From: Cyanidioschyzon merolae
Taxonomy: Eukaryota
DNA: 64,000 nt
NCBI GenBank assembly: GCA_000091205.1
Contig: AP006491.2
Direction: 5' to 3' (one strand)
Shown: piece after piece, positions 2,856 through 38,305 of the stretch
Numbering within the stretch: position 1 is the first letter of the stretch
How the letters are laid out: each line of letters starts with the position of its first letter
Notes under the pieces: model-generated
Database searches by the model: none
Told to the model about the DNA's origin: nothing
The model's input: the letters and a program-made list of their open reading frames with translations, nothing else
Program-made: the position numbers and the translations under genes

Positions 2856-2919
2856 CTGTTTGATAGAACGTTTACGCTGTACTTGGGATCTAGATTGCGC
2901 GATGGATATACGCTTTCGG

Positions 2920-3663: not shown

Positions 3664-6345
3664 ATGGCGAAAACACAAGCGCGGCAAGGGCAGCGGAACG
3701 CGGGGACCGACACAGCGCAGGGTCTTGGTCAAACTGTCGCTCCAGCGGCGGAGCCCGAACCGAACGATGCTCGAGAAGCACCAGCTCCGCAGCTGGAGAC
3801 TTCTTTATATGATAACGACTGGACCCATCGAACACATGCACTCGATGTGTTACGGTGGCTTGGATTTGGTGACTCTGTTGAGGCGCGCAGGCTCCGACGG
3901 TCGTTTGTTGCGCGGAAGCGTTCGCACTCGCCGGGTCAGCAGCGAGCCGGCGCACCGCCTTCGGGCCAGAATCGTTTTGACGGTCACCGTCGGAGTGCCG
4001 AGGACTCTACCTTTGCAGATCTTGAGAACGCTCGCGACGCTGGCGCCGAAAGTTCGCCGCACTGTGTGCGATGTGGCACGGAGTATCACGGTGAGGTGAT
4101 CGTGCGCGACGTTACGTTCTGCGTGCCGAAGCGAGGCACGGGCTTCCTTCATCTTGGCTTCTGTGGCGCTGAGGTGGCGCCTTTGCTCGAGCACGTCTAC
4201 GCGTACTTTCCACCGGGCAAGCTGTCCGGCATTATGGGCCCTTCGGGTTCAGGGAAAACTACGCTCCTAAATCAGATCGGGGGACGCATCCGTACCCTGG
4301 GAGCGACCGTCGCCGGGGAGATTCTCATTGACGCACATCAAAGGCCGAAAAAGGCAAAACGCTTCGTCGGCTACTGTGAACAGAACGACGTCCTGCCCGG
4401 TGACTTAACCGTCCGAGAGGCGCTCTGGTACGCTGCCCAGTTGAAACTACCGGAGCACTTATCGGACGAGGAGCGTTGGCGACGCGTAGAAGAGGTAATT
4501 GAAATTCTGAGTCTCGAGAAAATAGCGGATCAGCGCATCGGCGCTGATAACGATCGACAAATCAGTGGCGGTCAGGCGAAGCGGGTCAGCATCGCACTGG
4601 AAGTCATTGGCGATCCCCCAATATTCCTTGCTGACGAGCCAACGAGTGGGCAGGATACGCGCACCGCTTACTCTGTATGCCAAGCTTTACAGAATGTGGC
4701 ACACATCGGAGGCCAAACGGTCATTGCGACGATTCACCAGCCCTCGGTGGATGCCTGGGCCCTCTTCGATAATTTGGTGATCCTGGCGGCAGGTCGGGTG
4801 CTGTACAGTGGACGCGCGCAGCGTTTCCGCGACTACCTTATGCGAATAGAATTCCCGATTCCGGACAACCTCCATATAGCTCTACCTGACTACTTTATTG
4901 CCGTTGGTGTCAAGGCCGAAAAGAAGGAGCATCGCCTGAAAGGCAAAGGAGCAAGGAACTTTGATGACGAACAGGAGGACGAGGATCAGGACTTCGAAGG
5001 TGATGGTAACGACAACACCGTACAAGGCAATTTTGCTGAAATGAACATAACGGCCCACAAAAGATCCACTCGCGGTCAGCGTCGTGCGAAAACCTGGATA
5101 TCGGGGCTCACGCTTCCCTTTGCTGCACAGGAGTCAAGTCTGCGGTCCAGACGAATGACACGTGAGCGCAGTTGTACAGCATCAAACATGGACAACATTG
5201 CCGAGGTAGCTCGCCGCACCTTCGAGCAGCGTCAATTGTCCCATTATTCCGCAGTGAACGCTAGTCTGCCAGAGGAACACGAGCGAGCCATCAGGCAACG
5301 CACTGATGGCGACGACGCCCTCGTCGAGTCGATACTCGAGCGGCAGCGCTCTCAGTCACCAATGATGACATTTCGCCGCACCCCACAGGAATGGCGTGAG
5401 ATCTGGGAGCAGACTACCGAATACAAACGCCTTCGCTATGTTGCTGAGAGCCGCGCGAAATGCCTCGGGGAGTGCGGACTGCCGTACGCGTTCGGTGAAC
5501 CGACGTACATCACGAGCTGGTGGCGACAATTCCGGACGCTAACGGTACGCGCGTTTCAAGGCGAGGCGACGTCGCCACGTTTTCTCGCTTATCGCCTCAT
5601 CCTGGTGATCCTCGTGAATCCCGCAGGTCTGGCTACGATTTTTTGGCCTGCTCTGCGGCATCATTCGTCGTTGGCTCAGAACACTGCAGCAGCATCCTTT
5701 GTCGTGGCTGTCGCCAGTTGCATGGCGATTATGCGCACCTCCGTCGCGTTTTTGGAAGGGCGTGCGCTCATGTATCGTGAACGCTCTAGCGGTGCGTATC
5801 GCTCCTCCGCGCATTACCTGTCGACAATCGCCATGGAGGCACCGTTCAACGTATTAACCGCGATTGTTTTCTCCATTCTGGACTACTGGGCATTTGGTTA
5901 CCGCAAGAACGTCGGAGCGTTCTTTTTCTTCCTTTTCATCGTATACTTGAGCAATGCTTGTGCAGTGGGTATTGGACAGGGCCTGGCAGCGATTGCCCCG
6001 GACATAACGTTCGCATCGTCCTTTGCACCGGTTGTCTACATGACGTTTGCGGTTCTCGCGGGCTATCTGCTGCCACAGAGCCTCATCCCAATTTACTGGA
6101 AAGTTCTTCTGTACTACGCGAATCCGATCAGCTGGGCGTTTCGAGCGATCCTTCTGAATGAGTGGCAGCCGTACCTGGACGGAGCAACGCCGCCACCCTA
6201 CTTAGACTATCGTTCGGAACTGCGAACGCTTGGTTTGGAAAATCAGAGCAGATGGACAAGTGTCTACGTGTTGGTGGGCATTTATGCCGGCGCACGGCTC
6301 GTGACCTACGTCTTTCAGCGTTTCCTGAAATACGCCCATAACTAG
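3664..6345 (+). CDS. ABC transporter, ABCG/White-type half transporter (N-terminal nucleotide-binding domain then ABC-2 membrane domain); an alternative upstream ATG exists at 3532
   Basis: Walker A GPSGSGKTTLLN. ABC signature ISGGQAKRVSIALE. Walker B IFLADEPTSGQD. H-loop ATIHQPS. A C-terminal multi-helix hydrophobic domain. An acidic linker (DDEQEDEDQDFEGDGNDN) sits between the two domains. Stop codon TAG. Confidence 0.85.
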   Translation: MAKTQARQGQRNAGTDTAQGLGQTVAPAAEPEPNDAREAPAPQLETSLYDNDWTHRTHALDVLRWLGFGDSVEARRLRRSFVARKRSHSPGQQRAGAPPSGQNRFDGHRRSAEDSTFADLENARDAGAESSPHCVRCGTEYHGEVIVRDVTFCVPKRGTGFLHLGFCGAEVAPLLEHVYAYFPPGKLSGIMGPSGSGKTTLLNQIGGRIRTLGATVAGEILIDAHQRPKKAKRFVGYCEQNDVLPGDLTVREALWYAAQLKLPEHLSDEERWRRVEEVIEILSLEKIADQRIGADNDRQISGGQAKRVSIALEVIGDPPIFLADEPTSGQDTRTAYSVCQALQNVAHIGGQTVIATIHQPSVDAWALFDNLVILAAGRVLYSGRAQRFRDYLMRIEFPIPDNLHIALPDYFIAVGVKAEKKEHRLKGKGARNFDDEQEDEDQDFEGDGNDNTVQGNFAEMNITAHKRSTRGQRRAKTWISGLTLPFAAQESSLRSRRMTRERSCTASNMDNIAEVARRTFEQRQLSHYSAVNASLPEEHERAIRQRTDGDDALVESILERQRSQSPMMTFRRTPQEWREIWEQTTEYKRLRYVAESRAKCLGECGLPYAFGEPTYITSWWRQFRTLTVRAFQGEATSPRFLAYRLILVILVNPAGLATIFWPALRHHSSLAQNTAAASFVVAVASCMAIMRTSVAFLEGRALMYRERSSGAYRSSAHYLSTIAMEAPFNVLTAIVFSILDYWAFGYRKNVGAFFFFLFIVYLSNACAVGIGQGLAAIAPDITFASSFAPVVYMTFAVLAGYLLPQSLIPIYWKVLLYYANPISWAFRAILLNEWQPYLDGATPPPYLDYRSELRTLGLENQSRWTSVYVLVGIYAGARLVTYVFQRFLKYAHN

Positions 6346-7229: not shown

Positions 7230-8260
7230 GACTGCAGCAACAGTTTAGATTTCGGTGCTTCTGGTTGTTGTCGAAGCATTTGATTCACAGGCGCAAGTCG
7301 CGATCTCAGCATCGCTTGCCATGTTCATCTTCTTTGTATACAGACGTGGTACGCACTTCGTAGCGATAAAACTTGGGTATCTTCAGGTATTCCTTTTTCG
7401 CTGGCACATCACATGCTCCGAAGGCTGCACTGCAACGCTTGAACGTTTGCTTCATCTCTTGGTACATGTCCATGACGGGTACAGGGCAATGCCCTCGATA
7501 TTCTCATTAGAGTCCGCGCCCGGTGCCGCACCCAGTGATTACGGGCCTGTTCCTGGCGATACCGTCGGCGAGTGCTCTGGGCGCTACACTTGCAGGTACA
7601 CGCTGTCCCATTCGACAGACGATTCGTGAGACGCGATATTGCCCATGATAAAACAAGCACCGGAGAGGAAGTCCAGGATGCGGCTCAAGTCGAGAGATTT
7701 CGATCCATATACGCCTCCTTTCTGCAAAGTCGTGATGCATTCTCCACTGCAAGCGAGCGCTGTGATATCTAGGTCCGAGTCCGAGAACTTGCCACGTACA
7801 AAGAGAAGAGAGAGACGAATATCCAGGAGCGCGTTCTATGACAGGTGCCATGCTGCTTCGGAATGGTGTCTTGTCGATAGTGACGCAGACCTGAAGACAT
7901 GACTTTCGAACGGAATCGATTATTTGATGTGACACGCTCAGCGAACTTTCAGCATGAGCTTGTGACGGATTCGTCGAGGGACGACATCGATCTTTCTCGT
8001 CGTCAGTCCAATGTTGTGCATAATCGCCTCTGCGGATTGCCTTTAACACAGAAGGATTGAAACTTCAAGAATGTTTGATTTAAGCACTCTGCGTCTGAGT
8101 AACAGGGAAGAGTGGAGGCTTGTACGCACAGATTGGAGAAAAATCGTTCCAGGTACGAGCCTTGTTCACGGGCATCGCGATTGATCCTGATTCCGGTGAC
8201 GTAACCAGTTCCAGTGTGAAAGCGTCAAATGAGGTACTCCGAAAGCACTACCGAGCATCC
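7230..8260 (+). repeat. Dispersed repeat family 'R3', copy (about 1.0-1.2 kb)
   Basis: Shares the AQVAISASLAMFIF.. / ..LSHSTDDS* ORF segment with the R3 copies at 12.9 kb and 46 kb. Shares the block tttcgaacggaatcRat and the terminal motif ccggtgacgtaacc..agcgtc (8198) with the other R3 copies. Confidence 0.55.
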
Positions 8261-10754: not shown

Positions 10755-11138
10755 CTAGCTCCAAGCGCCGTTCCATGTGCTCAGCAAAATGGAAAACGTG
10801 TCGCGATCATACGGTAAATGAATACCGATGTGGAGGCGGATTCTAGTCGTTTTCGACCGGCCCATTGCTATCGACTTCAGCTTATCTTTGCATTCATCGA
10901 GTCTGAGAGGTTGCCCCACAAAGTTCGCTCGTGTTTGTTCCTCGGGCCTCGTCTTGAACACCGCACATCTCCTGGTATTGATGGTAGGGTTAAAGTCTTG
11001 GTTTACGAACTGCATGCATTCAATGACGCTTATTGATCGCACCGGTGCAAAGAGTCCTCGAACCGGTATCCTCTGTGCCACGACACTCTCGTTATTGTCC
11101 CGTCGGCAAAGCACCTCTTCTCGCGTATCTCCCCTCAT
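10755..11138 (-). mobile_element. 3' fragment of the TnpB/Fanzor-like element family (RuvC-III region only)
   Basis: Translation FVNQDFNPTINTRRCAVFKTRPEEQTRANFVGQPLRLDECKDKLKSIAMGRSKTTRIRLH aligns with the C-terminus of the ORF at 23135..24133 (FVNRDFNAVINLRRCAVLEKRSPDSTRGNFVGQPIQVELYEKKLEAVVSGWSIETGRRLY) and with the copy at 45.6-45.9 kb. Confidence 0.5.
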
Positions 11139-11451: not shown

Positions 11452-12345
11452 TTCGTATGATCTTTCAACTCATTTTTGTTTCACCCGAGCTGTGGTGAAT
11501 AGCAGGAGATAAAAATCACGATGCCATCTACCCTGTAGATCGTAGGCGATTTGGCTATAGGATAGCTTCTTTAATGAACAGTGGAAGGAGGACTGCTTTC
11601 CTCCTTCAGGTCAGTCATACGACGGTTCGCAGATAGCTGAGGAGCACTGAAAGAAAGAAACAAATAGATGCGCTCCGCGCCAAAAAAAACCGGTACTTTC
11701 AAGGCGTGCTTGCGGTCAAAGGAAGAAAACGATCCGCTGATCGCCTTAGTGAAAGCAAAAGCGACGGTAATAGCCACCACGGGCGTCTGTATTACTCAGA
11801 AACTTATTTGTGTGATCCTGAAACCACTGGAATATGGTAGGAATAGAGTCCAATCTCATTCACGGCCATCTTCCATCGAAATCGCAAATATCGCATTCCT
11901 GGAACGTCGCGACCGGTATGAAGCAAAGTGAAGTGGGTTTGTTTTCTCACTCGATGAACCTTTATTCTGGCGATACGCTCGGAGCGTATGTGGGTACTCG
12001 CGGAGCAGGGAGCCCATTGTATGTGCGGTCGAATTCGAAGAAAACGAGGGCATCGTCTGTTCTAGCGGCGATGGATTCATTCGGAAGTCTCAGTTTCGCT
12101 CGTGGAAAAGGTGCATACCACAGCAGAGACCACGTTGTCGAATCGTTGAACAATTTTCCCATGACGTCTACTTACTTTCTTCTATTATACAACGTCGCAT
12201 TTCAGCATTCCGCTTGCGTCCGAGCTTTGTCGATGCTATCAGAATAAAGTTACTTCTCATTCCTCCATACTATCCGTGATTCAAGCTCATTGAAGGAGAG
12301 TTTTCTATCGTAAAATATGTTGATCGCTCCACTAGGCGAACCGCT
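11452..12345 (+). repeat. Dispersed repeat family 'R2', copy 2
   Basis: Collinear homolog of 1942..2855 (see that entry). It lies next to the Fanzor-like fragment at 10.76-11.14 kb and the R3 copy at 12.9-14.1 kb. Confidence 0.65.
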
Positions 12346-12899
12346 GAGGGTGTCACCTTACAGTGAAACCGGTGCATTTTTTCGTCTTTCTTATGCAAAT
12401 CCTAGTCCCTCCGTGTAGGTCCTCACACAACGGCATCAACAATTGCTTTCATTTTAAAAAATAAGGAATGAGCATGAATGCACAATTCAGGAGATCGGAA
12501 TGCAGAAAAGCCAGCGGAGCGCTGACAGAGCAGCAAATGATACTGAGAGCGCGAGTTCGAGGACTCCTTGCACTAATGAGTTCAGAAAACGCCTAGAAAT
12601 GGAGGGAGGTAGCGAACCGAGACTTTAACACCGCCACTAATATCAGGACATGTGCGATGCTGACGACGATACCCGAGATGCTGAGGCGATCTAGTTTTGT
12701 GAGACAGCCTCTCAGGGTTAGAGCGTACAAGGAGAAGCGAAAACCGATAGCAAGCGGCTGGTCAAGAAACGTCGGGAGGCACCTGCGAGTGGGTAGATAT
12801 ACTTACTCTCTATCATTGTGAAGCGTTTTTTTGTTTCACTGACGATCTCTGCACATCATTCACCCATATAAGAATCAAATCGAACGGGTCTGCGGACAC

Positions 12900-14110
12900 G
12901 GGCAAACACACTAAAATTCCGAGTCTCTTCCATCTGTGATGAACACCAGCATCTGCGAGGTTTTTCCTCATCAATCTCCGTTTCCCGTCTCGTATTCCTC
13001 GAGTTACGTACGCGAGTCTCTCCTGCTCTTCCAGCTCCGTGGTAAGCAGTCGAGGGGCGTTGATGGCACTGTGCAAGCCCCGATACCACAGCTTCTAGCG
13101 CTTGTCTACGCATTCTGTCCACGAGCCAAATTTGCAAGATACGCCTCGATTGCCAATTTCATCTCCTTTGTAAAGAGCATTGGTGCGTCCTTCGTGGCGG
13201 TAACGCTTTGCCATGGCCAGATGCGCCCATGTCTCCACCAGAGCTCCTCCGAGAGCGGACCTGTGAGATGTGAACGCTTGCTGCGTCGCTCAGCTCATGC
13301 CCTGGATGGCTAGAGAAGGATTCGTTCGATGTCCTTCTCCGTTTTCGTGCCTGATGCCGTACCCTACGATCACGAGCTTCTTGCACCCGATCCCTTTGGC
13401 AAGCACGCTGCCCGCTGCATGCCCATGCGCATGCTCTTCCCTTTGGTAGAGGATTTCTGGAACGCGGTGTTGCTCTTGATGATACAAGGCCTGGAAGGAA
13501 AATCCAGGCTGGAGGAATACATTCGGAAGTTTTAGATTTTTCGGCGCTCCCTCGATGCCAAAGCAGTAAGGCGCGCTCCATTGGAGGCGATTCCTGCGAT
13601 GACTCACGTCCGAGTCCAAGACCTTTTCCCATGCAACAGAACGGACAGGAGCCTCTGTTAGCATGTTCCGTGAGAAGTATCATGGCGCTTCGTCGATCGC
13701 CACAAAAATGGAAAAATTCGTGTTTCGAACGGAATCAATACATTTCCATGAGAAGCCATGTGAAAGCTCCGCATGATCTTACGAAGAATTCTTCAACAGT
13801 TGATGTCGAATTTTTTTGCTCGTCAGTCCATCGGCGCGAATGAATGAATGAACCCACGAGTTGCCTTGAAATCGAACGTTTTATGAACTGGAGAATGCGT
13901 GATCCGAGTATGCTAAACGTAAGGAATGGAGCAGCGTGGTGGTTTGTGCTCTAGAGTTGGGTGAGGAAAAAATCGTTTCCTTTTTCGAGTCCTCGTTCGA
14001 GAGCCTCGTGGTCCAACTTGATTTCGGTGACGTAACGAATTCCTGCGACACAGCGTCGAAAGAGCCATCCCGAAAACACGACCGAGACTCATGATGCTGC
14101 ATATGAAACC
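12900..14110 (+). repeat. Dispersed repeat family 'R3', copy
   Basis: Carries an ORF ending ..SIGASFVAVTLCHGQ..LLRRSAHALDG*, homologous to the 46.0-46.4 kb copy (..FGASYAAVTLECYR..LSHRSAHTMDG*). The block ccgtaccctacgatcacgagc..ttctggaacgcggtgttgctcttgatgatacaag matches 39.77-39.93 kb. Also has gagaagtatcatgg..tttcgaacggaatc and the terminal ttcggtgacgtaacg..agcgtcgaa (14030). Confidence 0.55.
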
Positions 14111-19382: not shown

Positions 19383-20119
19383 GCGCAGGGGACGACCCTT
19401 TGCTGTGCTGCTGCGCGGTTTTGGTCCCCGCCTGCACGCTACCGTCTCTTACGTCCAGACATTTGCTTGCGCTCGAGAGCACTGTGAACCAGTTACTATA
19501 AACGCGCACATGGAACGAGTTCCAAGCGCCGGTGCAGCTCGCCTTGTCGTAGACACAGATGAGCGCTGGAGCGTACAGCGCTCGGTGGTACCTAGCGGCG
19601 TCGGTGGCGGCGGTGATGAAGCGTCTGAGACAGGCGTCGATGGCCGTCCAGTGACGGGTGTCAAATTTGATCTAAAACTGGAATGAGTGTTCAAGATTCA
19701 AAGGTTGCCGTTGCGGCAGCGGTGCCAGGCTGCTCTCTCGCAGGGATACTATTTACGTAGCTACGATCAATATCCAGAGCTGCATCTAGGATGCCTCCGA
19801 ACAGGCTCGCTTTGATCATATGTGGACCGTTTCGACGGGAACGCTTTCGACAGCACCACACGGACCTGGAAGGTCGTTCACCTATCTGTTGAGAAAAAGC
19901 GCATATACGGCACATGAACTGGCTGGTCCACGGACACGTCAGTGACAACTCATTTTCGCAATGCGTTGTGATATATCGAGTGAACCGTCGGAAAAACGTC
20001 TTTACCACTGAACGAGTTGAGTATACCTGACTAGCGGCGCGCGTGAAGGACACACTCGATTCCTTTTCGTTGGACGAAACGTTGACCCACAGAGCAGCAA
20101 TCCCTGAGAGCGTGCTCGG

Positions 20120-20735
20120 TAACCGCGCGTTGTGGGGTTTCCATCGTTCCGCGCCCTCCTCGCAAGTTCCGCTTCCCATACGTTCCCTCGGAGGTACCGA
20201 TTATTTTCAAGTTCGACCGTGTGCCGACTGCCCGTCGCGAGCGTCCGCGATAGCGCCTATAGCGGCGGCGCGGTCGTAGCATAGACAGAGAGAACCGACA
20301 TGCCATACCAGAGAGCGCATCGACTCGAGGAATGTCACGGCTGAGTCACGGTCGAGGTTCATGATCATTCTGGGAGCCTGCAAGCTGCGCTGGCAGACCT
20401 ACTGCCTGCGACAGCGCGAATCGATATCCTAGGAGTCCACTGCGACCAGGGCGACGCCCAGATGCAGCTTAACTGTCCCTAGTCCCAGAATGAATTGCTT
20501 TGTGGACGAGTAGCACAGGTTTCTTTCAAGAACGCGCCGCTGGGAGGGGCATGAAGCACGAGCCTGGCAGACTCGTTCGGCTCGCGCTACTTTCCGCCTA
20601 GACGTTAAACTTTCGGAAATACGGAAAAAATTTTCCCCTTTTAATGTTTAATGTAGACGGGGAAAGAAATCGATAGCTCGTTGCTCGTGACTCGTGAGTC
20701 TCTTTCCTTTTTTTTCTAAATAGCGCGGTTGAGAC
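20120..20735 (+). repeat. Dispersed repeat family 'R4', copy 2, immediately 5' of the Fanzor-like element
   Basis: Collinear with 2920..3522. Conserved hairpin at about 20626..20670 (tttcccc-[20 nt]-ggggaaa). Confidence 0.65.
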
Positions 20736-21017
20736 GCGCAATTCAGAGATCTGGCAGTCATGAGATATGACGCGCTTGTCGCCGTTGAAGGGAGACACGA
20801 TCCAAACCTTTATGATCCAGCAGTAAAGTAAAAGTTCTATTTCCGTTGAAGTCGTAGCAAACTGCAGTTTTCAGTTGAATCGTGTTTCAACCCTCAAATA
20901 AGTGTATTCAAGTCCTTTTTCGCGGTTTATAGGAGAAGCGTTCAAAGAGCGCCCTTTTTCAAAAAAAATAAAAAAGGAAATGTTATCAAAAACCAAGTCG
21001 ACGATCCTGGAGGCCAA

Positions 21018-21359
21018 GTGTCGCTGGCTGCCAGAAAAAACAAAAAACAGTACCGAGTCCAGAAGAAAAGAAAGAGAAGAAGGACCGAAAGGAGGGAGGT
21101 CCTACGTCGAAGGCTGCAAGAAAGACCACACTACAACGAACTGGTTATGAAAGCCTGTCTTCTTGAACAGATCAAGGTTCCGTGCAAGAAAAAGTTACGA
21201 GAGTCCATTCGAAACCGTTTTGAGCCGAACTCCATGACTATAATACAGGTGTCGTCAGGACTAATGCATTTGGCGGGGGAGATGTATCGCGAAGTGACGC
21301 ACATGGAAACGGTCCAGCTTCCGAACGAGTTTTCGACGAGACCTTTATTCGTCACATGA
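21018..21359 (+). CDS. Element ORF1: basic, NLS-like protein (KKRKRRRTERR). Its TGA stop overlaps the ATG of the nuclease ORF (ATGA)
   Basis: The ORF is conserved in copy C (44013..44501, MHIAKEMYRNVTHMETVEVPDEF..) and copy B (33303..33581, minus strand). The start codon is uncertain: the track start is GTG, and a further ORF at 20902..21150 in another frame may belong to the same protein. The ATGA overlap is present in both copy A and copy C. Confidence 0.4.
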   Translation: MSLAARKNKKQYRVQKKRKRRRTERREVLRRRLQERPHYNELVMKACLLEQIKVPCKKKLRESIRNRFEPNSMTIIQVSSGLMHLAGEMYREVTHMETVQLPNEFSTRPLFVT

Positions 21360-24133
21360 CGATTGGTACAGCGGAAGCGCGGAGGGAAAATGAACGCGTG
21401 CACGTCCTGCACGAAAAACACCTCTTTTACAGCTTCGAGGGTACTCGGTATACAGGTGACGCGGATATTTACATGTACGGGGCGATGAAGTACCTGACGA
21501 ACCTGAAGAACCATGTGACGATGAACCTCGAACGTTTCATGATACGCGCCGTGTTTGCGCTGTACCCGGGAATCTCACGCAAGGGGATATGGGCGATTAT
21601 CAATGGCGCCACGAACGATCGCAGGCATGAAGATGAGGTCGAATTTGTCGAGAAGAAGGCGTCAAACGAGAGCACGAATGAAGCTTCTGTAATCCGTGCG
21701 GCTATGCAAGAGCACGGCGCAGTCATGGGGCTACCGAATCCAACAGAAAAGATGTCAGAGTTAAAAAAAGATAAGGAAAGGTACTATCGCCTCATCCTGC
21801 GCTATTTTGTGTTTCTGAATCGTGAACTCGAACGCAAGGCGGAGATGAAGCTGAGTGAAGAGACAAATGAAGAGTGGGAGAGACGGAAGGCTTTCCTAAT
21901 GGGGAAGCAGTTAAACGTGGTTCCGTTGTGCAACATCAAGTAGTATTTTGTGAGTATCGATTCAGGCGTCCTTTACGGCATCATGAAGGAGATCAGTCCG
22001 GGGTTCAATGTTAGCAGGGAGGACTTCATCGGTGAAAACCGGGAGACGTACTGGAAGAGTATCTTCGATTTCAAACGTCTCAAAGTCAGCAAACAAAAGT
22101 TATTCACTGGGATGATCGAAACCGATGGCGTAGCCATGTGTGCACACTATCGGCGGTTGAAGAAAGAGTGTCCAGTTCCACCCTCGGCTGCACCCGTGAC
22201 GAAGGATGAAGAAAACAAAGAAGAGGATCCTGCGATGCAGGAGGTGGAGGATAACGACTTTGTCGTTGACATTACGAAGGATGAAGATGAGAAGACGGCG
22301 GATCCTGCGACGCAGGAGGTGCAGGATAACGGCTTTATCATTGGCGCGGCGAAGCATGAAGAAAACAAAGAAGAGGATCCTGCGACTCAGGAGGTAGAGA
22401 ATAACGACCTTGTTGTTGACATTACGAAGGATGAAGATGAGAAGACGGCGGATCCTGCGACGCAGGAGGTGCAGGATAACGGCTTTATCATTGGCGCGGC
22501 GAAGCATGAAGAAAACAAAGAAGAGGATCCTGCGACTCAGGAGGTAGAGAATAACGACCTTGTTGTTGACATTACGAAGGATGAAGATGAGAAGACGGCG
22601 GATCCTGCGACGCAGGAGGTGCAGGATAACGGCTTTATCATTGGCGCGGCGAAGCATGAAGAAAACAAAGAAGAGGATCCTGCGACTCAGGAGGTAGAGA
22701 ATAACGACCTTGTTGTTGACATTACGAAGGATGAAGATGAGAAGACGGCGGATCCTGCGACGCAGGAGGTGCAGGATAACGGCTTTATCATTGGCGCGGC
22801 GAAGCATGAAGAAAACAAAGAAGAGGATCCTGCGACTCAGGAGGTAGAGAATAACGACCTTGTTGTTGACATTACGAAGGATGAAGATGAGAAGACGGCG
22901 GATCCTGTGATGCAGGAGGTGCAAGATAACGACCTTGTCGTTGACGCGACGAAGCATGAAGAAAACAAAGAAGAGGATCCTGCGACTCAGGAGGTAGAGA
23001 ATAACGACCTTGTTGTTGACATTACGAAGGATGAAGATGAGAAGACGGCGGATCCTGTGATGCAGGAGGTGCAAGATAACGACCTTGTCGTTGACGCGAC
23101 GAAGCATTAAGAAAACAAGAAGGCGGATCCTGCGATGCAGAATGTGCAGGATAACGACTTTGTCGTTGGCGCGGACCCTGGGAATACGAATATCATAACC
23201 ATCGCTGTACCCAAGCGTGCGGAAGATGGTACTGAAGGTAATTTACGTCAGAAAGACATGCGTCTTTTGAGATTCTCGAGGGCAAGATATTACCGAGAAT
23301 CCGGTATAATGAATGCGAGGAAGAAAATCGAGACTTGGAATTCAGGAATGAAAGAGCGCCTGGAAGCTTTGAGCGAGGTGACGAGCCGCGGAGCGGATTA
23401 TGAAGCTTTTCGGAGATTCATGGAAGTTCGTGTTGCCCATTGGGATGCGCTGTGGAAGGAGTATACAAAGCCCAGTTGGGCTCGTCTGCGAATGAATCTG
23501 TACGGTGTGAAGCAGCGGGCGTTTGCGAATTTTTTCAATCAGTTGAGCGCCCTGAAGGAGGATGAAAGTCAGAGGCTCGTAGTAGCATACGGAGCAGGGC
23601 GATGGAAGACCCAAAAAGGGACTACGCCAGCTCCAACGACAAGAACGTATAAGGAGTGCGCACGGCGTTTTGCCTCGATACCTATAGACGAGTTTCAAAC
23701 ATCGTATACACACCATGAACTGAGGTGCACACTCCAGAGGGCCGAGATGGAAAAGTGCCAGACGAACCCTGAGGATATGAAAAAGTACGGACCGCTGACG
23801 GAAGAGCAAATGGAAAGGAGGACGAAAGTTCGAAGATTATTTGTATTAGTAAGTACAACCGATGACGGCAAGAAACGCATGGAATTCGTGAACCGTGACT
23901 TTAACGCCGTTATCAATCTAAGGAGATGTGCGGTGCTGGAGAAAAGATCTCCAGATTCGACAAGAGGGAACTTTGTTGGACAACCTATCCAAGTCGAACT
24001 ATATGAGAAAAAGTTGGAAGCAGTAGTGAGTGGCTGGTCCATAGAGACGGGGAGGCGTCTGTACGTCAGTTGGAGACTTCTTGTCAAGGGCGGGTTTCTC
24101 GCCACTACTGTACACTGCTGTCGTTCGACTTAG
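21356..24133 (+). pseudogene. TnpB/Fanzor-like RuvC-nuclease ORF (about 925 codons) interrupted by two in-frame stops (TAG 21941..21943, TAA 23108..23110)
   Basis: A single reading frame runs across 21356..21943, 21950..23110 and 23135..24133. RuvC-I-like motif: NDFVVGADPGNTNIITIAV. TnpB 'YTSQ'-like motif: IPIDEFQTSYTHHELRC. RuvC-III-like motif: FVNRDFNAVINLRRCAV (the D-x-NAA-x-NI pattern of TnpB/Cas12/Fanzor). The TAA lies where every other repeat unit has GAA. Confidence 0.65.
22230..23107 (+). repeat. In-frame tandem repeat, 75-bp unit (25 aa), two alternating subtypes forming a 150-bp higher-order repeat, about 11.7 units
   Basis: Units DPA(M/T)QEV(E/Q)DND(F/L)VVDITKDEDEKTA alternate with DPATQEVQDNGFIIGAAKHEENKEE. 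The unit resembles the sequence just before RuvC-I (MQNVQDNDFVVGADPG). This periodicity generates the long antisense ORF at 22100..23107. Confidence 0.85.
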
Positions 24134-24249
24134 AACGGCGGTGGTGGCTTGTCCATTAGCACGCGTCAACGCAGACTTAGGTGCCCGACGCTTCTTGGAT
24201 ACGCGCGCCGCCTGTAATGAACTGAGGAAACACCAGCAGCACTGGCGTC

Positions 24250-25563
24250 ATGCTTGAACGCGGTACGCTAGAAGCGGCGAAGACTGAAACGCCCGCCTCT
24301 CAAGCGGTTGTTTCGGATCACTCGGAAATAGATCGCGTCCGCGTAACGGTAACAAGCCGGGATCGACCGGGTATCACCGCAGCTATTACAGCTGTGGTGG
24401 CGCGATGCTCCTGTGAGATCCTCTCCGTGCGTCAAGTATGCGTGCGTCGACGTCTAACCTTGATGTTTGAGCTTCTAGTGAAGAACGCGTTTCCACAACA
24501 GTCTATCTTTCGTGAGCTTCTATTAGTCAGCAAGCGTATCGGAGTGTCCGTCGATTTCTCGCTACAGCCGTCAACAGAAATATCTTCCGCTGAGGCTTGC
24601 ATGCTGCAGCACGCGTCAGAGCAGTACGTCATTACCGCTATCGCGGCGGACTCGATTACTCCGGCGTTTCTCGCTGATCTTGGGCAGAAATTGCAAGAAC
24701 GGAACTTTGTTCTCGAGTCGGTGAACAAGTTGAGCCAGCATCGCCTCGGCTGCATTGAACTGGTGGTTTCATCCCCGGCGTCCTCGTCGTCCAGCGACAT
24801 TCAACAGTTTCGCTCGGAGATGTTTGTGCTTGGGCGCAAGTACGCGACCGATGTCGCCGTGCAAAAAGAGAGTCTCATCCGCAAAAGCAAACGCCTCGTG
24901 GTCATGGATATGGATAGCACGCTGATCCAACAGGAAGTGATTGATGAGCTCGCTCGCTATGCAGGCAAATTCGAGGCGGTGCAGGAAATCACGCACCGAG
25001 CCATGTGCGGGGAACTCGACTTTAGAACAAGTCTGTACAAGCGCGTGGAATGCTTGAAGGGAACGCCCGCCACCGTCTTTCAAAAGGTGATCGATCATCT
25101 GGTGTACACGCCTGGTGCGCATTTCCTGGCACATTCCTTGAAACGACTCGGGTACAAACTGGCAGTCATTTCCGGGGGCTTCGCTCCGATTGCCCAGCAC
25201 GTGCGACAGACGCTCGGACTTGATTATGCGTACGCGAACCAGCTGGAAGTTGGTCCGGACGGGTGTTTTACGGGCCGAACGGTGGGCCCCATTGTCGACG
25301 GCCAACGCAAGGCAGACCTCTTGATGGCCATCGCCCAACAGGAGCAGATCGACCTCGAGCAGACAATCTGCATTGGTGATGGAGCCAACGATTTGCCAAT
25401 GTTATCGATGGCGGGTCTCGGCATCGCCTTCAATGCAAAGCCTGCTGTCCAGGAGCGGGCAGCTTTTCGTCTCAATCGCCAAAGCCTCGACTCTGTCCTC
25501 TATTTTCTCGGTATTCCAGAATCTGAGCAGATTCAGTTACGAGAGCACAACGATGCATCGTAG
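24250..25563 (+). CDS. serB: Phosphoserine phosphatase (N-terminal ACT-like regulatory domain plus a HAD-family SerB domain)
   Basis: HAD motif I VVMDMDSTLIQQEVIDELA. Motif III-IV ICIGDGANDLPML. An ACT-like segment DRVRVTVTSRDRPGITAAITAVVA. ATG start at 24250 and TAG stop. Confidence 0.9.
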   Translation: MLERGTLEAAKTETPASQAVVSDHSEIDRVRVTVTSRDRPGITAAITAVVARCSCEILSVRQVCVRRRLTLMFELLVKNAFPQQSIFRELLLVSKRIGVSVDFSLQPSTEISSAEACMLQHASEQYVITAIAADSITPAFLADLGQKLQERNFVLESVNKLSQHRLGCIELVVSSPASSSSSDIQQFRSEMFVLGRKYATDVAVQKESLIRKSKRLVVMDMDSTLIQQEVIDELARYAGKFEAVQEITHRAMCGELDFRTSLYKRVECLKGTPATVFQKVIDHLVYTPGAHFLAHSLKRLGYKLAVISGGFAPIAQHVRQTLGLDYAYANQLEVGPDGCFTGRTVGPIVDGQRKADLLMAIAQQEQIDLEQTICIGDGANDLPMLSMAGLGIAFNAKPAVQERAAFRLNRQSLDSVLYFLGIPESEQIQLREHNDAS

Positions 25564-28622: not shown

Positions 28623-30599
28623 TCACTTGCGCCCAGAGACGAAGAATTGGAGCACGACGTAGCTGCACAGACGGTAGAATGCGATCATTGCGATGAGTAT
28701 GCCCGAGTTCATCCAGATATTCTTGAACTTGACGTCATAGAATTCAAGTACCTGTGCGCCATTCAACTGAATCGTATCCCCGACAACGTTCTCTGAGAAG
28801 CCCGTTTGAGAGCCGAAATTATTTGCCATGAAACTTCCAAACCCGTAGGTGTGTAATGAGATGTAACCAATCCAGCGGACCCACCAGCCGATCTTATTGA
28901 AAGTCGCGAAAAACCCACAGGTCAACATATAGGCACCGTAGACAGCAGCTCCCAGCGCGATTGCCAGGATCGCGATCGGCACGAGGATGCTGATGAGCAT
29001 CATGAGCGCCTCTGCAACCGCAAGCGCTAGGAATAAATTCCAGATGAAGAAGAAGAAACGGCCGGCTGTTGGCGTGAGTCCCACCATCCAGTATACGATG
29101 GACGAGTTCACGAGCGAGATGAGGAAAACCGCAGGAATGGAGACGAGGGTGTTTGCGATCATCCAAGAATCCACGCTATAGAGGCCGTTTCCGCGCTCGC
29201 GCAAGAACACAAGGCGCTCTTCGATGAACATCACGACGGTGCTGACAGACATGAAAGTCAGAAAAGCCGCAACGAAAAACAAGACGCTCACGATATCTCG
29301 AAGCTGGCTTTTGCCCAGCCGCAGGTACACGAGGCCAACGAATATAGACAGAGCCACATACATCGCCATACGCAGCAGGACGGCAGCGGGGTTACGTCGG
29401 TAGTTGAGGGCGTTCCGGCGGGTAAGCACTTGCACCTGATGCCAGCGAGGCACTGGCTTCACCTCAATACTCTGGCTCTGCTGCTCAGTCTGCGTCGTTG
29501 CGCGCAGTTTCTCAAGTTCCGCATCGAGAACCTTCTTCTCTTCCGACTGTGTCCACGCGTTGCTAATCTTTTCCACTTGCTCCTCGCTCGCAAAGTCTGA
29601 ATTGATACAGTCCAAGAAAAAGTCGGCTGGATTCTCAAGGTTTGGAAGTGGATACCCAATTTTCTCGAAATACTTCACAGCATGGCTGGTTGGCCCAAAG
29701 TATACAGTGCGCCCTCGAGAAAGGAGCATGAGCTTATCGCTCAGTGCCAGAACTCGGGCAGCCGGCTGGTGGATCGTGGCAACAATGGTTACGCCCATGG
29801 CAGCGAGGTTCCGAATCGAGACCATGAGATGAAAGGCGGCGGCTGAATCGAGGCCAGAGGTCGGTTCATCGAGAAAAAGGATGCTGGGCAGGCGAAGAAT
29901 CTCTACACCGATTGACAGGCGCCGCTTTTGGCCACCAGAGATACCTCGGAAAAAAGGCGAGCCCACCAACGTATTCTGCGCATCCTCTAAACCGAGTGTA
30001 CGCAGCATCTGGTCAACGCGGTCTTCGAGTTCAGACTTGGACACACTTGGACCCAGCTGCAAGGTTGCTGCGTAACGAAGCGATTCGCGAACTGTCAGTG
30101 AACCATACAGTGCATCTTCCTGCTCGACAAAGGCGTGAATCTGACGCCAGTTGGTTTGCTCACGGGGTATGTCGTTGACATAAACCGGAGTCTGGAGGCC
30201 AACCTGGTGCTCTATTCTGTCAGACAATGCAGATAAAAGGGTAGTTTTTCCGCTTCCACTCGGTCCCATGACGAAAAGCACTTCGCCGGGGCGCACCACA
30301 CCGCCAACGTTGTTAAGCAGTACCTTTTTGGTTGGCGAAGCCGACTCTATATCCGTTTTGGACACCTTCTTGCCAATCTTGAGAGGGACCTCGAAGTAAA
30401 CGTCCCGCCACCAGAGTATAGCACGTTCGTCTTCAGGAAGCTTGTCTCCATGTTGACCGAGAAATACGGGAAGTCTGGTGATGTACTGCGAAGTCCCTGT
30501 ACCGTGGCTGGACAGGGAAGCGAGACGCGCTTCGATATCATCTCGCTCCGAGATTTCCCGCCCCCTTTCGATGCCTTTGTTTTGATCTAAGAGTGTCAT
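28623..30599 (-). CDS. ABC transporter, ABCG/White-type half transporter
   Basis: Walker A GPSGSGKTTLLSAL. Q-loop. Signature ISGGQKRRLSIGVE. Walker B LFLDEPTSGLD. H-loop ATIHQPA. A six-helix ABC-2 type membrane domain. The first ATG is at 30599 (the track start at 30620 is GTG). Confidence 0.88.
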   Translation of the reverse strand: MTLLDQNKGIERGREISERDDIEARLASLSSHGTGTSQYITRLPVFLGQHGDKLPEDERAILWWRDVYFEVPLKIGKKVSKTDIESASPTKKVLLNNVGGVVRPGEVLFVMGPSGSGKTTLLSALSDRIEHQVGLQTPVYVNDIPREQTNWRQIHAFVEQEDALYGSLTVRESLRYAATLQLGPSVSKSELEDRVDQMLRTLGLEDAQNTLVGSPFFRGISGGQKRRLSIGVEILRLPSILFLDEPTSGLDSAAAFHLMVSIRNLAAMGVTIVATIHQPAARVLALSDKLMLLSRGRTVYFGPTSHAVKYFEKIGYPLPNLENPADFFLDCINSDFASEEQVEKISNAWTQSEEKKVLDAELEKLRATTQTEQQSQSIEVKPVPRWHQVQVLTRRNALNYRRNPAAVLLRMAMYVALSIFVGLVYLRLGKSQLRDIVSVLFFVAAFLTFMSVSTVVMFIEERLVFLRERGNGLYSVDSWMIANTLVSIPAVFLISLVNSSIVYWMVGLTPTAGRFFFFIWNLFLALAVAEALMMLISILVPIAILAIALGAAVYGAYMLTCGFFATFNKIGWWVRWIGYISLHTYGFGSFMANNFGSQTGFSENVVGDTIQLNGAQVLEFYDVKFKNIWMNSGILIAMIAFYRLCSYVVLQFFVSGRK

Positions 30600-30715
30600 A
30601 CGAAGATTAATAGTATCCACGACGATTTAACTTTCGTAGAAGGAACGTATGTGTTGTGCACAGTATTGGACACGGAATCAAAACACAGTAAAAAAATCAG
30701 ATTTGAGAACCGGGG

Positions 30716-32425: not shown

Positions 32426-32857
32426 GTGAATGAGGCCTGGATAGACCACGGGACAGAGCTGCATGAAGACGCAACTGGGCACTGCCAAGACCCAATCTAT
32501 TGGCACCAGTATGCCGCAGAACTACCGCGCCTCGAACCGGTACCGGAATGGAACGACCCAATCTTCTGGCCTGAATCTGTTCGGGCCCTGTTAAGCTCAT
32601 GCAACCGCAAAACACCTGGCATTGACGGTATCGCTGCCGAGTGGATGAAACTGGTGATCCCAAAATACGAGACAACAGGGACACCATCGATACCACGCCT
32701 CAAGTCGACGCCCGTTGTGGTACGGCAACGCCGTTCTGTCTCCGTGCAGCGACCGCACCGGCGCTATAGGCGCTATTGCTGTCGCTTTCGGCAGGCACTA
32801 GGCACACACGATAGGACGTATGAAACGACCAGAATATCCGAGATGAAGTATAGGTAA
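32426..32857 (+). pseudogene. Fragment of a reverse transcriptase from a non-LTR (LINE-like) retrotransposon (N-terminal RT motif only)
   Basis: ..VRALLSSCNRKTPGIDGIAAEWMKLV.. matches the conserved K-x-PGPDGI motif at the N-terminal boundary of the RT domain. No further RT motifs follow, so the copy is truncated or degenerate. Confidence 0.4.
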
Positions 32858-32965
32858 TGTACCATGGAGGTAGGTGTAGATCGATGGATACTTCACCGCG
32901 CACTGAAAAAACACACACAAAAAAAAGTAAGAAAAGAAAAATGCGCAGAATCGGAGAACGCTGGC

Positions 32966-33760
32966 CTAAGTAAACGTTTTGTGAGTGGAAAAAAATTTGA
33001 TAATCGCCCATATCCCCTTGCGTGAGATTCCCGGGTACAGCGCAAACACGGCGCGTATCATGAAACGTTCGAGGTTCATCGTCACATGGTTCTTCAGGTT
33101 CGTCAGGTACTTGATGGCCCCGTATTCGTAAATATCCGCGTCACCTGTATACCGAGTACCATCGAAGCTGTAAAAGAGATGTTTTTCGTGGAGGACGTGC
33201 ACGCGTTCATTTTCCCTCCGCGCTTCCGCTGTACCAAGCATCAGGTGACGAATAAAGGTCTCGTCGAAAACTCGTTCGGAAGCTGGACCGTTTCCATGTG
33301 CGTCATTTCGGGATACATCTCCCCGCCAAATGCACTAGTCCTGACGACACCTGTATTATAGTCATGGAGTTCGGCTCAAAACGGTTTCGAATGGACTCTC
33401 GTAACTTTTTCTTGCACGGAACCTTGATCTGTCCAAGAAGACAGGCTTTCATAACCAGTTCGTTGTAGTGTGGTCTTTCTTGCAGCCATCGACGTAGGAC
33501 CTCCCTCCTTTCGGTCCTTCTTCTCTTCCTTTTCTTCTGGACTCGGTACTGTTTTTTGTTTTTTCTGGCAGCCAGCGACACCTAGGCCACCAGGATCCTC
33601 CACTTAATTCCCCATAGGTTTCCTACTTTATTTTTTTGAAAAGGAACGCTCTTTGAACGCTTATGTCATATAATGGGAAAAACACTTGAATACACTTGTT
33701 TGAGGTTTGAAACACGAATGAACTGAAAACTATGCTTTGCTACGACTACATCGCAAATCC
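32966..33760 (-). mobile_element. TnpB/Fanzor-like element, copy B: a 5' fragment (ORF1 plus the N-terminus of the nuclease ORF), then truncated
   Basis: ORFs at 33303..33581 (MSLAARKNKKQYRVQKKRKRRRTERREVLRRW..) and 32966..33241 (MLGTAEARRENERVHVLHEKHLF..ISRKGIWAII) are over 90% identical to copy A. The 5' leader matches copy A at 20850-20990. Homology ends after GIWAII. Confidence 0.65.
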
Positions 33761-34899
33761 AACTTGTTCGTTGGATCTACACACTCTATCTCGCCATGCG
33801 ATGCCGTTGTCATCCGTTCGACAAGGCCCCCAGCCACAGTGAACGCGCCTAATCTGGAGTCTCATGTCCCCCTAACAAGAAAACGTATTGTCAAGCTCGC
33901 GTTTCCCTTCAACGGCTACATTCGCGCCGTATCTCGTGACGGCCTGATCGCCCAGGTGCGCGTATCGAGTGCGCCACACAGAAAAAAGAACAGAGACTCT
34001 CGATTCACGAGCATGTAGATTTTGTTTTCCCTTTCGACGATAAACTTTGAAAGGAGAGAAAGCTTTCCGTATTTTAGAAACTTTACCTTTTACGCGTAAG
34101 ATCCCTAGAACTGTAAGAGTCTGCTAAGCTGGTGCTCGGTGTTCATCTAAAGTGGCTGGAGCAGCCGCGAGACCTGAGCAACTCGTCCCCAGAGCGGTTT
34201 ATTCCGGGACCAGGGGTGCTTAGGCAGCGTCTGCACGCCGCCCTGGTCGCAGCGTATCCAGTGGTAAGCCTAGACTGTTCTGTCTACGTGCCATGACCGC
34301 AGCGGCGCAATGGGGGCTACGGCGGGTGCTCACGGCATGCATTCGACACGCGATAGGGCGTGCGAAAGGACAATTATATCCGAGAAGAAGAATGGCTAAT
34401 GGAACGTGAAAGTAGAGTGCAACATGGTGGACGCTTTCCCCGAAGTCGCTGGCGGCGCGTCTCCATTCCATGCGAAAGTGCTGCACCGAGTTACTGGTAT
34501 CGATGACCCGAGTTCGATTAAACTTGAACAGTATATTGCTCGCCCTCTTCCTGCTTTTCGAATTTTAAAACTTTATTCCGATGGAAAGCCGCGGCATTCG
34601 AAAAGGGGCTATTGTGACTTACGCATTCTAACGAATATGCGGATCCTCGGCAGCGTTTTTGGAATGGCCTCCTCAACGCGTTACCACGGGAACTCTTTCA
34701 GTTCCGGGACGCGAGCTCATTTGCGAGACCCCCCGAGCGAGACTTCTTAAAATACCCGATACGATGATCCACCGCATACGCCCAAGTCTCCAAGCTTCCC
34801 TTTTTCTCACGATAAGTATGCTTCAACCATAAATGTTTCAAGGCGACCCGTTGACGCAGCAATGCACGTCACTAGATTGATGAGCAGAAAAATTCGACT

Positions 34900-35410
34900 T
34901 GCTCCACTGTGAGCATGTTCATGAGCTCGCACGGAAAGCTCTCTGAACTCATCAATTCAAATAATCGATTCTCTTCGAAAATGGACAAATGCTCCTCTAT
35001 TTGTGGCCATCAAGGAGGCCGCATTCGACAGCAGCACGATGCCTGTAATGGGATACGCTTCCAGAGCCATCCGCCTGCACAGTGTGAATGCAAAGGGGTC
35101 CTGCGCTCGGACCTCAGCCATCGCAGCGCTCGCTTCCTGCGGATAATGCGCAACCGTTTCGCATGATGGGGGCGTAGATGAACAGAGATATTACGACTTG
35201 ACCTCTAGCCTGTTTTTTCCCTTCCAGTGCCTTTTCAATGTAGACAACATCGCGTTCCACAAACCCCGTATCGAATGGGACAGCGTGCGCTTGCGTGTAC
35301 CTCGGACAGAGTCCTCGCCAAGGCGATCGCGCGGAAGAGGCCGGTGATCAGAGCGTACAGTAATGGGCACGAAAACGAAGAATGCGTCATGGGGAGCGCT
35401 CTGCACCCGT
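34900..35410. repeat. Rearranged partial copy of the R3 repeat (plus-oriented 5' part next to a minus-oriented middle part)
   Basis: On the plus strand, ..DLSHRSARFLRIM.. (about 35100-35160) resembles the R3 ..DLSHRSAHTMDG segment. On the minus strand, 35191..35406 (..VRSDHRPL..GLWNAMLSTLKRHWKGK) resembles 39.77-39.93 kb. Confidence 0.4.
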
Positions 35411-35669
35411 CAACTACTTGTACTGAGCGATGAAGCGAGCGGTCAAGCGCCACCAAGAACGCCTCAACCTAGTTGTCCAGTTTTCCTTGGGGGGCGAATG
35501 CGCTGCTCCAGGTGGAAACCCTCCTGAAGCGCGGCAAGTGGACGCGCGCTGCATCCTTCCAAAGCGATACATTTTGGGTCAAATCGTACGCTATGAACAG
35601 TATCCACCGCGGGCGCTCCGTCGAGCACCTGCGCTTCCGAACGCGGGTATTCGCGTAAACACAGAGGCC

Positions 35670-37244: not shown

Positions 37245-38305
37245 TTCGTTACCCTCAAGCTGATTGCCCTGCTTGGACACGGACCCTCTATCTCTGTCGG
37301 GGGGTATGCACGAATACGGTGGAGGCACCTACACTCGCCCGTACTGTTTCCGGCGCATTCGACGAGAGCAGCGCCCTTATCTTTGTGAATCAGGCGTGGA
37401 CGTCTTCTCAAAGGCACCGCGATGACGCTGAAAGTGGTCACGAAACCCGTACGCAAGCAATAGATGCCGTCTATCGGAAACAGTTGTTCATCGGGGGATT
37501 TGCTCATCCACACGTCTGCACGCGTGGATGTTAGGGTGGAATCCAGCATGCCGGCATGGTAAAAATTCTCACGAATCGTTGATCCTCCGAACCGTCGGCA
37601 TCTGCACGTACAGGTACGGATACTAAAGTCGAATCCTTTATTTTCGTGATCTGTATCCACGCGTCTGGCAGCTCGTGCTCGTCAGCGCGTTTGCCGCAAC
37701 CTGCTGCTCCCTCTTCGGTGGTACGAATGTCGCCCAGCAGATCAGTTTCACCGTATCCGCCAGCCCAAAGTCGACGACGATCACAAAACAGGTCCCGGGT
37801 GCTCGTCACAACGGACCTCCGCTTTCGCGTCTGCGAACGCGAGCATCGAACGCGGAGCTTGCACGGCGCCAGGACGAGCGCTCGTTCATGCACAAACGCA
37901 AGCCTGTAGAAAAGCTTTCTGTGCTTCGTGCGACCTTGCGAAGCGATTTTGCAGGCCAGTGCCGGAACCTCGCCCAACTGATGTACGGCAACGCTGATTG
38001 TGGAAACGAGACAGCAAATTCAGCTGGATATCTGGACCTCTTCCCCTGGCATGTTTTACACGCCGTTCGATCATGACCAGAGCAGCGACTGCAGCGCTGC
38101 GATGCCAATGCGATCGCCAAGAGGTAGCGTCCCTCATCTGCAGGTCATCTAACAATCTAGGGACTGGTCTGTGGCAGCGGTGTGTGGCCCCCAGCGGTTT
38201 GCATTCCTTTGAACTGAAGAGGCACGAGCAGTAGTGGCGTGCAATGCATACGTCGGAGCCTCCTCGACATGAACGCCTTTCTGGGTAATACTCAGACTAG
38301 TGCCT

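Follow-up and report, generated by a model that had tools for sequence, protein, structure and literature searches.

The window analysed here is a 64,000-nucleotide stretch of contig AP006491.2 from Cyanidioschyzon merolae (assembly GCA_000091205.1), a thermo-acidophilic red alga that grows at ~42-50 °C and pH 1-3. It carries Fanzor-like open reading frames (ORFs), designated copies A, B and C, together with three families of non-coding repeats, R2, R3 and R4. In the original prediction these repeats were held to flank the nuclease ORFs in fixed adjacency as parts of a larger composite element, and a hairpin near the end of R4, followed by a conserved tail, was proposed as a structured RNA partner of the nuclease. 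The Fanzor-like ORFs are almost certainly copies of CMe-1A, the Fanzor1 transposon of C. merolae, with R4 as the part shared with the non-autonomous element TE-N2_CMe, and decay of this known transposon is probably the best explanation of the region as a whole. The guide (omega) RNA of the family would most likely be encoded at the opposite, 3′ end of the element.

CMe-1A is present in ~150 copies, each ~80% identical to a 3169-bp consensus, and encodes a 734-aa Fanzor1 protein in a single exon; it lacks terminal inverted repeats (TIRs), and its target-site duplications (TSDs) were left undetermined (Bao & Jurka 2013, Mob DNA 4:12; PMC3627910; Repbase). TE-N2_CMe, a non-autonomous element with ~70 copies, is 95% identical over its whole length to the 5′ 635 bp of CMe-1A (PMC3627910). 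When the CMe-1A consensus (PMC3627910, Additional file 2) was aligned to the window, copies A, B and C and a solo copy of R4 matched it at 77-90% identity, in keeping with the ~80% typical of the family. The full unit consists of R4 (~640 nt), a 260-nt non-coding leader, the 734-aa Fanzor1 ORF and a non-coding tail of ~60-75 nt. Its remains in the window are as follows.

2861-3504, plus strand: solo R4, TE-N2_CMe-like, consensus 4-641 at 79.7% identity; homology to other copies spans ~2848-3510
10897-11063, minus strand: Fanzor 3′ fragment, consensus 2850-3019
12515-12714, plus strand: Fanzor 3′ fragment, consensus 2810-3012
20140-20719, plus strand: R4 module of copy A, consensus 70-644; holds the hairpin (20632-20665) and tail (20666-20685)
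20720-20979, plus strand: conserved non-coding 5′ leader of the Fanzor core in copy A, consensus 645-905; common to all 5′ subtypes
20980-24133, plus strand: Fanzor1 pseudogene of copy A; the frame shifts near 21350 and is interrupted by stop codons at 21941 and 23108
22120-23244, plus strand: 75-nt (25-aa) tandem array within the ORF of copy A; the unit is consensus 2117-2196, repeated ~13-15 times
32692-32888, minus strand: isolated R4 5′ fragment, consensus 70-262
32997-34440, minus strand: copy B, comprising R4 (33891-34440, internally deleted), the leader and the opening ~620 nt of the ORF; truncated at 32997
43698-45928, plus strand: copy C, heavily decayed; consensus 2-115 (an R4 remnant), 638-1950 and 2394-3138

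Copy A, the most complete, covers consensus 70-3145 at 83-90% identity and retains all three RuvC motifs (GADPG, DEF..TS and NRD, in the forms GADPGNTN, IDEFQTS and VNRDFNAV), and its consensus stop codon has been mutated from TAG to AAG at 24087. Copy B covers consensus 61-239, 366-729 and 735-1525. In copy C the RuvC-I region is deleted and the 3′ module is degraded. None of the three has an intact ORF, each being interrupted by frameshifts, stops, truncation or deletion; all are pseudogenes, and any activity is therefore historical.

Assignment of the ORFs to Fanzor1 is supported by their relatives. The C-terminal ORF of copy A (23135-24133) has hundreds of close relatives, every one from hot-spring metagenomes, and a profile search of 1.84 billion representatives recovered 1,246 relatives, many of them 600-700 aa long. 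A profile built from 30 family members matched the Fanzor1 structures 9cf0 (PpFz1, Parasitella parasitica; E 2.7e-19) and 8gkh (SpuFz1, Spizellomyces punctatus; E 4e-12), with alignments that span the DPG, DEFRTS and NRD motifs. Within the family alignment, D232, E404 and D473 are invariant, as expected for a split RuvC nuclease. The deeper 30-member profile was required, since searches of the PDB with a single sequence and with a shallow profile gave no Fanzor match. In Pfam, neither the window ORFs nor distant relatives had a match above threshold; the only hit, on one relative, was weak and of the Cas12f1-like TNB kind (E 0.0023).

The tandem array of copy A immediately precedes the RuvC-I GADPG motif on its N-terminal side and has a 150-nt higher-order period with 97% identity; homologs carry 2-5 units where copy A has ~13-15, which marks this acidic linker as a variable-number repeat. 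Positions 21030-21603 of copy A and 32997-33570 (minus strand) of copy B are 95-100% identical over ~580 bp of the 5′ part of the ORF, and the near-identical stretch stops at the truncation point of copy B; over R4 and the leader, the same two copies are just ~55-70% identical. Judged from this pattern, the tract looks like recent gene conversion between inverted pseudogene copies 11.4 kb apart. The Fanzor 3′ fragments at 10897-11063 and 12515-12714 form an inverted pair that brackets one copy of R2 (R2b, 11492-12340) in a foldback-like arrangement; longer self-matches between them (10848-11063 and 12555-12771) are ~68% identical.

Self-BLAST of the window confirmed that R2, R3 and R4 exist as repeat families, with similarities well above chance (E 1e-14 to 1e-101). 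R2 is represented by 1996-2850 and 11492-12340 (70% identity, E 1e-101), and R4 by 3011-3475 and 20224-20688 (69% identity, E 1e-43), with further self-BLAST pieces on the reverse strand at 32698-32879 and 33897-34440. The copies are distributed as follows.

1996-2850, plus strand: R2a, a dispersed non-coding repeat outside CMe-1A; its second copy is R2b at 11492-12340
7257-8255, 13016-14086, 39532-40477 and 46088-47166, with 35106-35449 as reverse complement: R3, 64-75% identical by self-BLAST
~2861-3504 and 20140-20719, with 33891-34440 and the 5′ fragment 32692-32888 as reverse complements: R4, by self-BLAST

The families show no conserved ORF. In tblastx, copies match one another at no more than 37-55% amino-acid identity, with hits on either strand and in shifting frames, so the earlier statement that they lack obvious coding capacity holds. 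R4 corresponds to consensus 1-644, because the solo R4 and copies A-C align there. R2 and R3 have no match in the 3169-bp consensus; they are very probably not part of the element, and we regard them as unrelated non-coding dispersed repeats that share the scarce intergenic space of a compact genome. A 2024 paper on dispersed repeats of C. merolae did not help to identify them.

The local adjacencies noted in the original prediction are real. R2a abuts the solo R4 (2850 and 2861), R4 abuts copy A, R3 begins ~160 nt after copy C, and R2b lies beside Fanzor 3′ sequence, between two such fragments. Their constancy was examined in 80 related loci (~1 Mb) around Fanzor homologs taken from metagenome contigs, in which same-locus copies were collapsed by their flanks; together with the window, these provided 31 independent 5′ ends and 47 independent 3′ ends. 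The 5′ ends converge at the equivalent of window ~20723. Directly upstream of this point, R4 in forward orientation is found in 10 of the 31 cores, the first ~200 nt of R4 are inverted and abut head-to-head in 5-6, an unrelated 'type II' module is present in 11, and nothing recognisable is present in 4. With R4 missing or inverted in 21/31 cores, its linkage to the nuclease gene is not constant. R3 lies within 500 nt of only one of the 47 3′ ends, that of copy C in the window; elsewhere it is found kilobases from Fanzor 3′ ends and in either orientation. R2 touches R4 in 0/4 independent R2 copies in the loci. The counts thus identify R4 plus Fanzor as a genuine, known composite and exclude R2-R4-Fanzor-R3 from that status; what had been described as fixed adjacency does not extend beyond the window.

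R4 also occurs alone. In addition to the copy at 2861-3504, solo copies were found in loci L026, L033, L036 and L037, as expected if the 5′ ~635 bp behave as an independent element; they share a T-rich end motif (...TCTCTGTTCTTTTTTCT), after which the sequences are unrelated. R4 is best seen as an exchangeable 5′ cassette and not as an RNA partner, since some Fanzor cores have it inverted and others have a different 5′ module; its decay is uniform and apparently neutral. In the window (2861-3531), the full-length solo R4 has the same orientation as an ABC-transporter ORF and lies 28 nt before its ATG; in L033 (1519-2190) a full-length solo R4 lies 57 nt before a DEP/DUF547 gene, and in L037 (11947-11090, minus strand) ~200 nt before an SSXT/Myb gene, again in the same orientation. 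These three cases of recurrence just upstream of host ORFs hint at a promoter or 5′ untranslated region (UTR) role.

Each Fanzor core starts with a small GC hairpin (window 20723-20745), the pairing of which is preserved although its sequence varies by subtype, with GCGCG-gtcgata-CGCGC where R4 is linked and GCGCTC-ggt-GAGCGC in the other copies. It is precisely at this hairpin that inverted R4 copies abut. RNAalifold found no consensus structure in the 260-nt leader beyond this small initial stem.

At the opposite end of the element, the last ~100 nt form a candidate guide-RNA module. In TnpB and Fanzor systems the guide RNA comes from the right end, where it overlaps the ORF in part or follows it directly, and the guide itself is read from flanking DNA; SpuFz1 uses a 75-nt scaffold followed by 14-15 nt (Saito et al. 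2023, Nature 620:660), and ApmFz has ~200 nt past the ORF. The corresponding features of copy A are listed below.

24050-24148, plus strand: 3′-terminal module of ~100 nt, candidate omega-RNA scaffold
24087-24106, plus strand: small stem-loop of this module (stem B)
24113-24126 paired with 24133-24146, plus strand: terminal hairpin of this module, the 3′ arm of which ends at the boundary

When the 47 independent 3′ ends were aligned, pairwise identity was ~0.73-0.75 up to ~24149, where it dropped to a background of 0.27. The codon-position signature, in which third positions are less conserved, is gone after ~24060. The stop codon of the CMe-1A consensus falls at 24087, so the last ~60 nt, with the terminal hairpin, were non-coding in the ancestral element. 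The module therefore lies at and after the 3′ end of the ORF and ends at the right boundary, as an omega-RNA should.

The tail of copy A folds at -31.6 kcal/mol (z = -4.82; 0/200 shuffles as stable), and the minus strand of the 101-nt module (24050-24150) gives z = +0.06. The terminal hairpin is kept in most of the 47 copies, with stems of 14-19 bp (for example, CACCGTTGGCGTCGTTCGA-CTT-TCGAACGGCGTTGATGGTG in relatives). In 39/47 copies the sense strand folds more stably than the antisense (-15.3 vs -10.8 kcal/mol; Wilcoxon p = 1.6e-6), in keeping with a stem in which five or six positions are mostly G·U. Two forms of the end, type 1 and type 2, are related by a 3-nt deletion in the loop and a 3-nt insertion in the arm, and both have long stems. 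Among 23 type-1 copies, 81.1% of cells are paired as opposed to 78.0% in shuffles (0/500), with 30 pair types as opposed to 23.5 (0/500). In a covariance-model alignment of all copies, both-side changes number 48 cells as compared with 29.7 (0/500), in an alignment that is itself biased towards the structure. Identity to the consensus, taken segment by segment, is uninformative about constraint on the tail because the consensus carries the type-2 hairpin.

The hairpin is not visible in the published consensus, which ends ...GAAAGGCG, within the 3′ arm. Conservation continues ~12-15 nt past that end (window 24136-24148) and completes the stem; on the left it starts ~10-14 nt before the published 5′ end (window 2848-2860), with GATTTTTTTTT ahead of CGATGACAAAACG. 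Both extensions are seen across independent copies, including those in loci L010, L029, L047 and L013. No TIRs were found in the end alignments, and no obvious TSD or transposon-adjacent motif was seen in the flanks at R4 5′ ends or at 3′ ends, although these were not looked for systematically.

A covariance-model search of the window revealed no extra solo 3′ modules; one match (3770-3865, E 0.016) falls within the ABC-transporter ORF and was put down to chance. No Rfam family matches the module, and the sole match in a permissive Rfam scan of 20100-24300, to mir-375, was likewise attributed to chance. In four 'type II' loci (L016 1230-1345, L044 1038-1153, L046 4271-4378 and L068 366-478), a second, ORF-less 3′ module of ~100 nt sits ~740 nt upstream of the Fanzor core, so that these units have the candidate omega-RNA module, in direct orientation, on both sides. 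With flanks ~80% identical to one another, the four loci may derive from one event.

On this basis, analogy with SpuFz1, ApmFz2 and TnpB points to the final ~100 nt (24050-24148, plus strand) as the most likely source of the guide RNA: a small stem-loop and, after it, a long terminal hairpin rich in G·U pairs, the end of which coincides with the right boundary of the element. Since the hairpin ends there, the adjacent flanking DNA would be transcribed along with the module and could serve as the guide. We put the chance that the 3′ module is, or was, an omega-RNA scaffold at a little below even. A fuller model is less likely to hold: that the module is a genuine Fanzor1 omega-RNA scaffold with a flank-read guide and, in addition, that R4/TE-N2_CMe is an independently mobile and possibly promoter-bearing 5′ cassette which has joined cores in either orientation.

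A number of observations weigh against these readings. Covariation at the 3′ hairpin is modest and depends on the subset: none was detected in the 13 type-2 copies or in a plain MAFFT alignment of all 47, RNAalifold predicted no structure for the module, and where the covariance model did give a signal, the alignment had itself been fitted to the structure. Between ORF length and hairpin stability the correlation is weak (rho = -0.32, p = 0.08), and such a terminal hairpin might act at the level of DNA instead of as an RNA. On the protein side, just one of 47 sampled relatives has a near-intact ORF (722 aa, locus L003), and an AlphaFold2 model from a 19-sequence alignment reached a predicted local distance difference test score of 33. 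The equation of R4 with TE-N2_CMe rests on the published statement and the CMe-1A consensus.

The expectation that a structured guide RNA lies in a non-coding end of the element was a reasonable one, but the structured boundary module is at the 3′ end and not in R4. The R4 hairpin is present where it had been reported, at 3417-3426 (CTTTCCCCCT) paired with 3444-3453 (AGGGGGAAAG) on the plus strand of the solo copy, which is the same as the consensus stem, and as TTTCCCC (20632-20638) paired with GGGGAAA (20659-20665) on the plus strand of copy A. The family consensus is a perfect 10-bp stem (CTTTCCCCCT/AGGGGGAAAG); measured against it, the 7-bp stem of copy A is a decayed, shortened version and not the compensatory change it had been taken for. 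A role for the R4 hairpin and tail as an omega-RNA-like partner of the nuclease could draw on that perfect stem, on the recurrence of the tail sequence in most copies, on the one third or so of cores that R4(+) abuts, and on the solo copy near 3 kb, which folds better than its shuffles (z = -2.53). Copies A and B do not (+0.16 and -0.09), and in copy A the hairpin is absent from the minimum-energy fold. In 14 independent copies, pairing of the stems equals that in column shuffles (81.6% vs 81.4% of cells, with 239/500 shuffles as high or higher), the covariation score is 0.161 against 0.157, and RNAalifold predicts no structure, so covariation lends no support to a conserved stem. Nor is the region specially conserved: identity to consensus is flat across R4 (0.77-0.85; hairpin plus tail, 0.78-0.80), and in the same copies R4 is 0.75-0.82 identical to consensus as compared with 0.84-0.90 for the ORF. 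The hairpin lies ~55 nt inside R4 and ~300 nt upstream of the ATG, on the 5′ side, and R4 itself is 240-300 nt from the ORF and away from the boundary that would supply a guide; TnpB and Fanzor guide RNAs come from the 3′ end. Given the lack of covariation, the ordinary conservation, the wrong side, the inconstant linkage (absent or inverted in 21/31 cores) and the solo copies beside host genes, R4 is not a credible partner, and we consider this proposal largely refuted and its truth very improbable. Equally improbable is a single larger transposon, R2-R4-Fanzor-R3, seen in pieces in the window. The junction of R2a with R4, the position of R3 after copy C and the order R2, Fanzor fragment, R3 at 11.5-14.1 kb would all suit it; R2 and R3, however, lie outside a consensus whose two ends were both determined, conservation stops at ~24149 in 47 copies with unrelated flanks, and the related loci reproduce neither the R3 linkage (1/47, in both orientations) nor that of R2 (0/4). 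The composite idea thus survives in the form published in 2013, with R4 and the Fanzor ORF as one mobile unit.

For the 3′ hairpin, two other roles compete with that of RNA scaffold. It may be a cis signal in DNA, recognised on the single-stranded top strand by an unknown transposase. We think this improbable, but it fits a family without TIRs in which the hairpin stands exactly at the element end and the core also starts with a small hairpin (GCGCTC-GGT-GAGCGC). Because G·T wobbles are tolerated in single-stranded DNA, the strand asymmetry does not discriminate between an RNA and a DNA signal. Against it, the family has no associated transposase, HUH, Rep or other; its 3′ end reads ...GGTG and not the CTRR of Helitrons; and its left and right hairpins share no sequence relationship, in contrast to those of IS200/IS605. 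The two roles coexist in IS200/IS605, so a DNA signal would not exclude an omega-RNA. More doubtful still is the suggestion that the hairpin serves an mRNA as 3′-UTR, terminator or stability element, or is simply an inherited palindrome without function. Its position just after the consensus stop codon speaks for this, as does type-2 pairing that sequence conservation alone mostly explains; against it stand type-1 and type-2 ends that differ by compensating indels while both keep 14-19 bp stems, the covariation signal in type-1 copies, the exact coincidence of the hairpin end with the boundary of a mobile element, and the ORF-less module kept ~740 nt upstream of the core in four 'type II' loci.

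The window is otherwise gene-dense, with few introns and a G+C content of ~54%. The ORF at 24250-25563 is an exact match to the phosphoserine phosphatase (SerB) BAM79981 of C. merolae 10D, and that at 47491-49959 to its methionyl-tRNA synthetase, BAM79987. Other genes near the repeats, or resembling those near them, are given here.

1781-1884, minus strand: intron-containing tRNA gene (Rfam RF00005, 47.7 bits), immediately upstream of R2a
3532-6345: ABC-2-type transporter gene, directly downstream of the solo R4
28623-30620, minus strand: second ABC-2-type transporter gene

The tRNA gene, overlooked by ARAGORN, is the sole Rfam match at gathering threshold. The transporter ORF that follows the solo R4 has its ATG at 3532, and this 937-aa reading has no annotated protein counterpart; the real start of the transporter therefore probably lies further downstream. 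Two further repeats were seen: a 32-nt tandem array of ~14 units (58772-59233) that adjoins the start of a 925-aa ORF, and a 75-nt dispersed repeat in three copies (237-311, 38288-38362 and 53426-53500), two of which are 87-95% identical.

For annotation, R4 and the Fanzor-like ORFs should be masked as CMe-1A/TE-N2_CMe and not entered as new regulatory or RNA genes, and the published CMe-1A consensus needs correcting, its true right end lying ~12-15 nt further out. The hairpin-bearing tail is the obvious place to seek the guide RNA of this Fanzor1. If an intact copy and its RNA proved active, a heat- and acid-adapted eukaryotic RNA-guided nuclease would join the few that have been characterised, an advance that would be incremental and not conceptual.

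Among known systems, the omega-RNA (reRNA) of IS200/IS605 TnpB offers a close likeness, as it overlaps the 3′ end of the nuclease gene and stops at the element boundary in elements that also have subterminal hairpins and no TIRs or TSDs. Membership in that group was considered and rejected: there is no TnpA here, the host is eukaryotic, the left and right hairpins are dissimilar, and no transposon-adjacent motif was detected in CMe-1A flanks. Helitrons share the GC-rich 3′ hairpin and the lack of TIRs, and Fanzor1 genes ride in Helitrons of other algae, such as CRe-2 and CRe-3 (PMC3627910, table). CMe-1A differs from these in having ...GGTG at its boundary, with ends of the form ...GTTGATGGTG or ...GTTGTTGG, in place of a CTRR terminus, and in having no RepHel gene or any other ORF within the element, and it was not assigned to them. 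SpuFz1 belongs to the same nuclease family (profile E 4e-12 to 8gkh) and has a scaffold of ~75 nt, as compared with ~60-100 nt here; its 'ghost loci' may be compared with the ORF-less module copies described above. The C. merolae element lacks the 30-nt inverted repeats of SpuFz1, the RNAs have no sequence similarity, and the C. merolae module is a candidate predicted from sequence. The nearest comparison is with CMe-1A and TE-N2_CMe themselves, which come from the same genome and have the same sequence, with R4 as the shared 5′ ~640 bp and no TIRs. Relative to the published CMe-1A, the window copies are pseudogenes with deletions, an expansion of a tandem unit and a gene-conversion tract, and relatives show two further 5′ architectures, with R4 inverted or a 'type II' module in its place. 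The composite family was already known; what our analysis adds is conservation beyond both published ends, with a terminal hairpin undescribed in the paper, and a candidate omega-RNA module.

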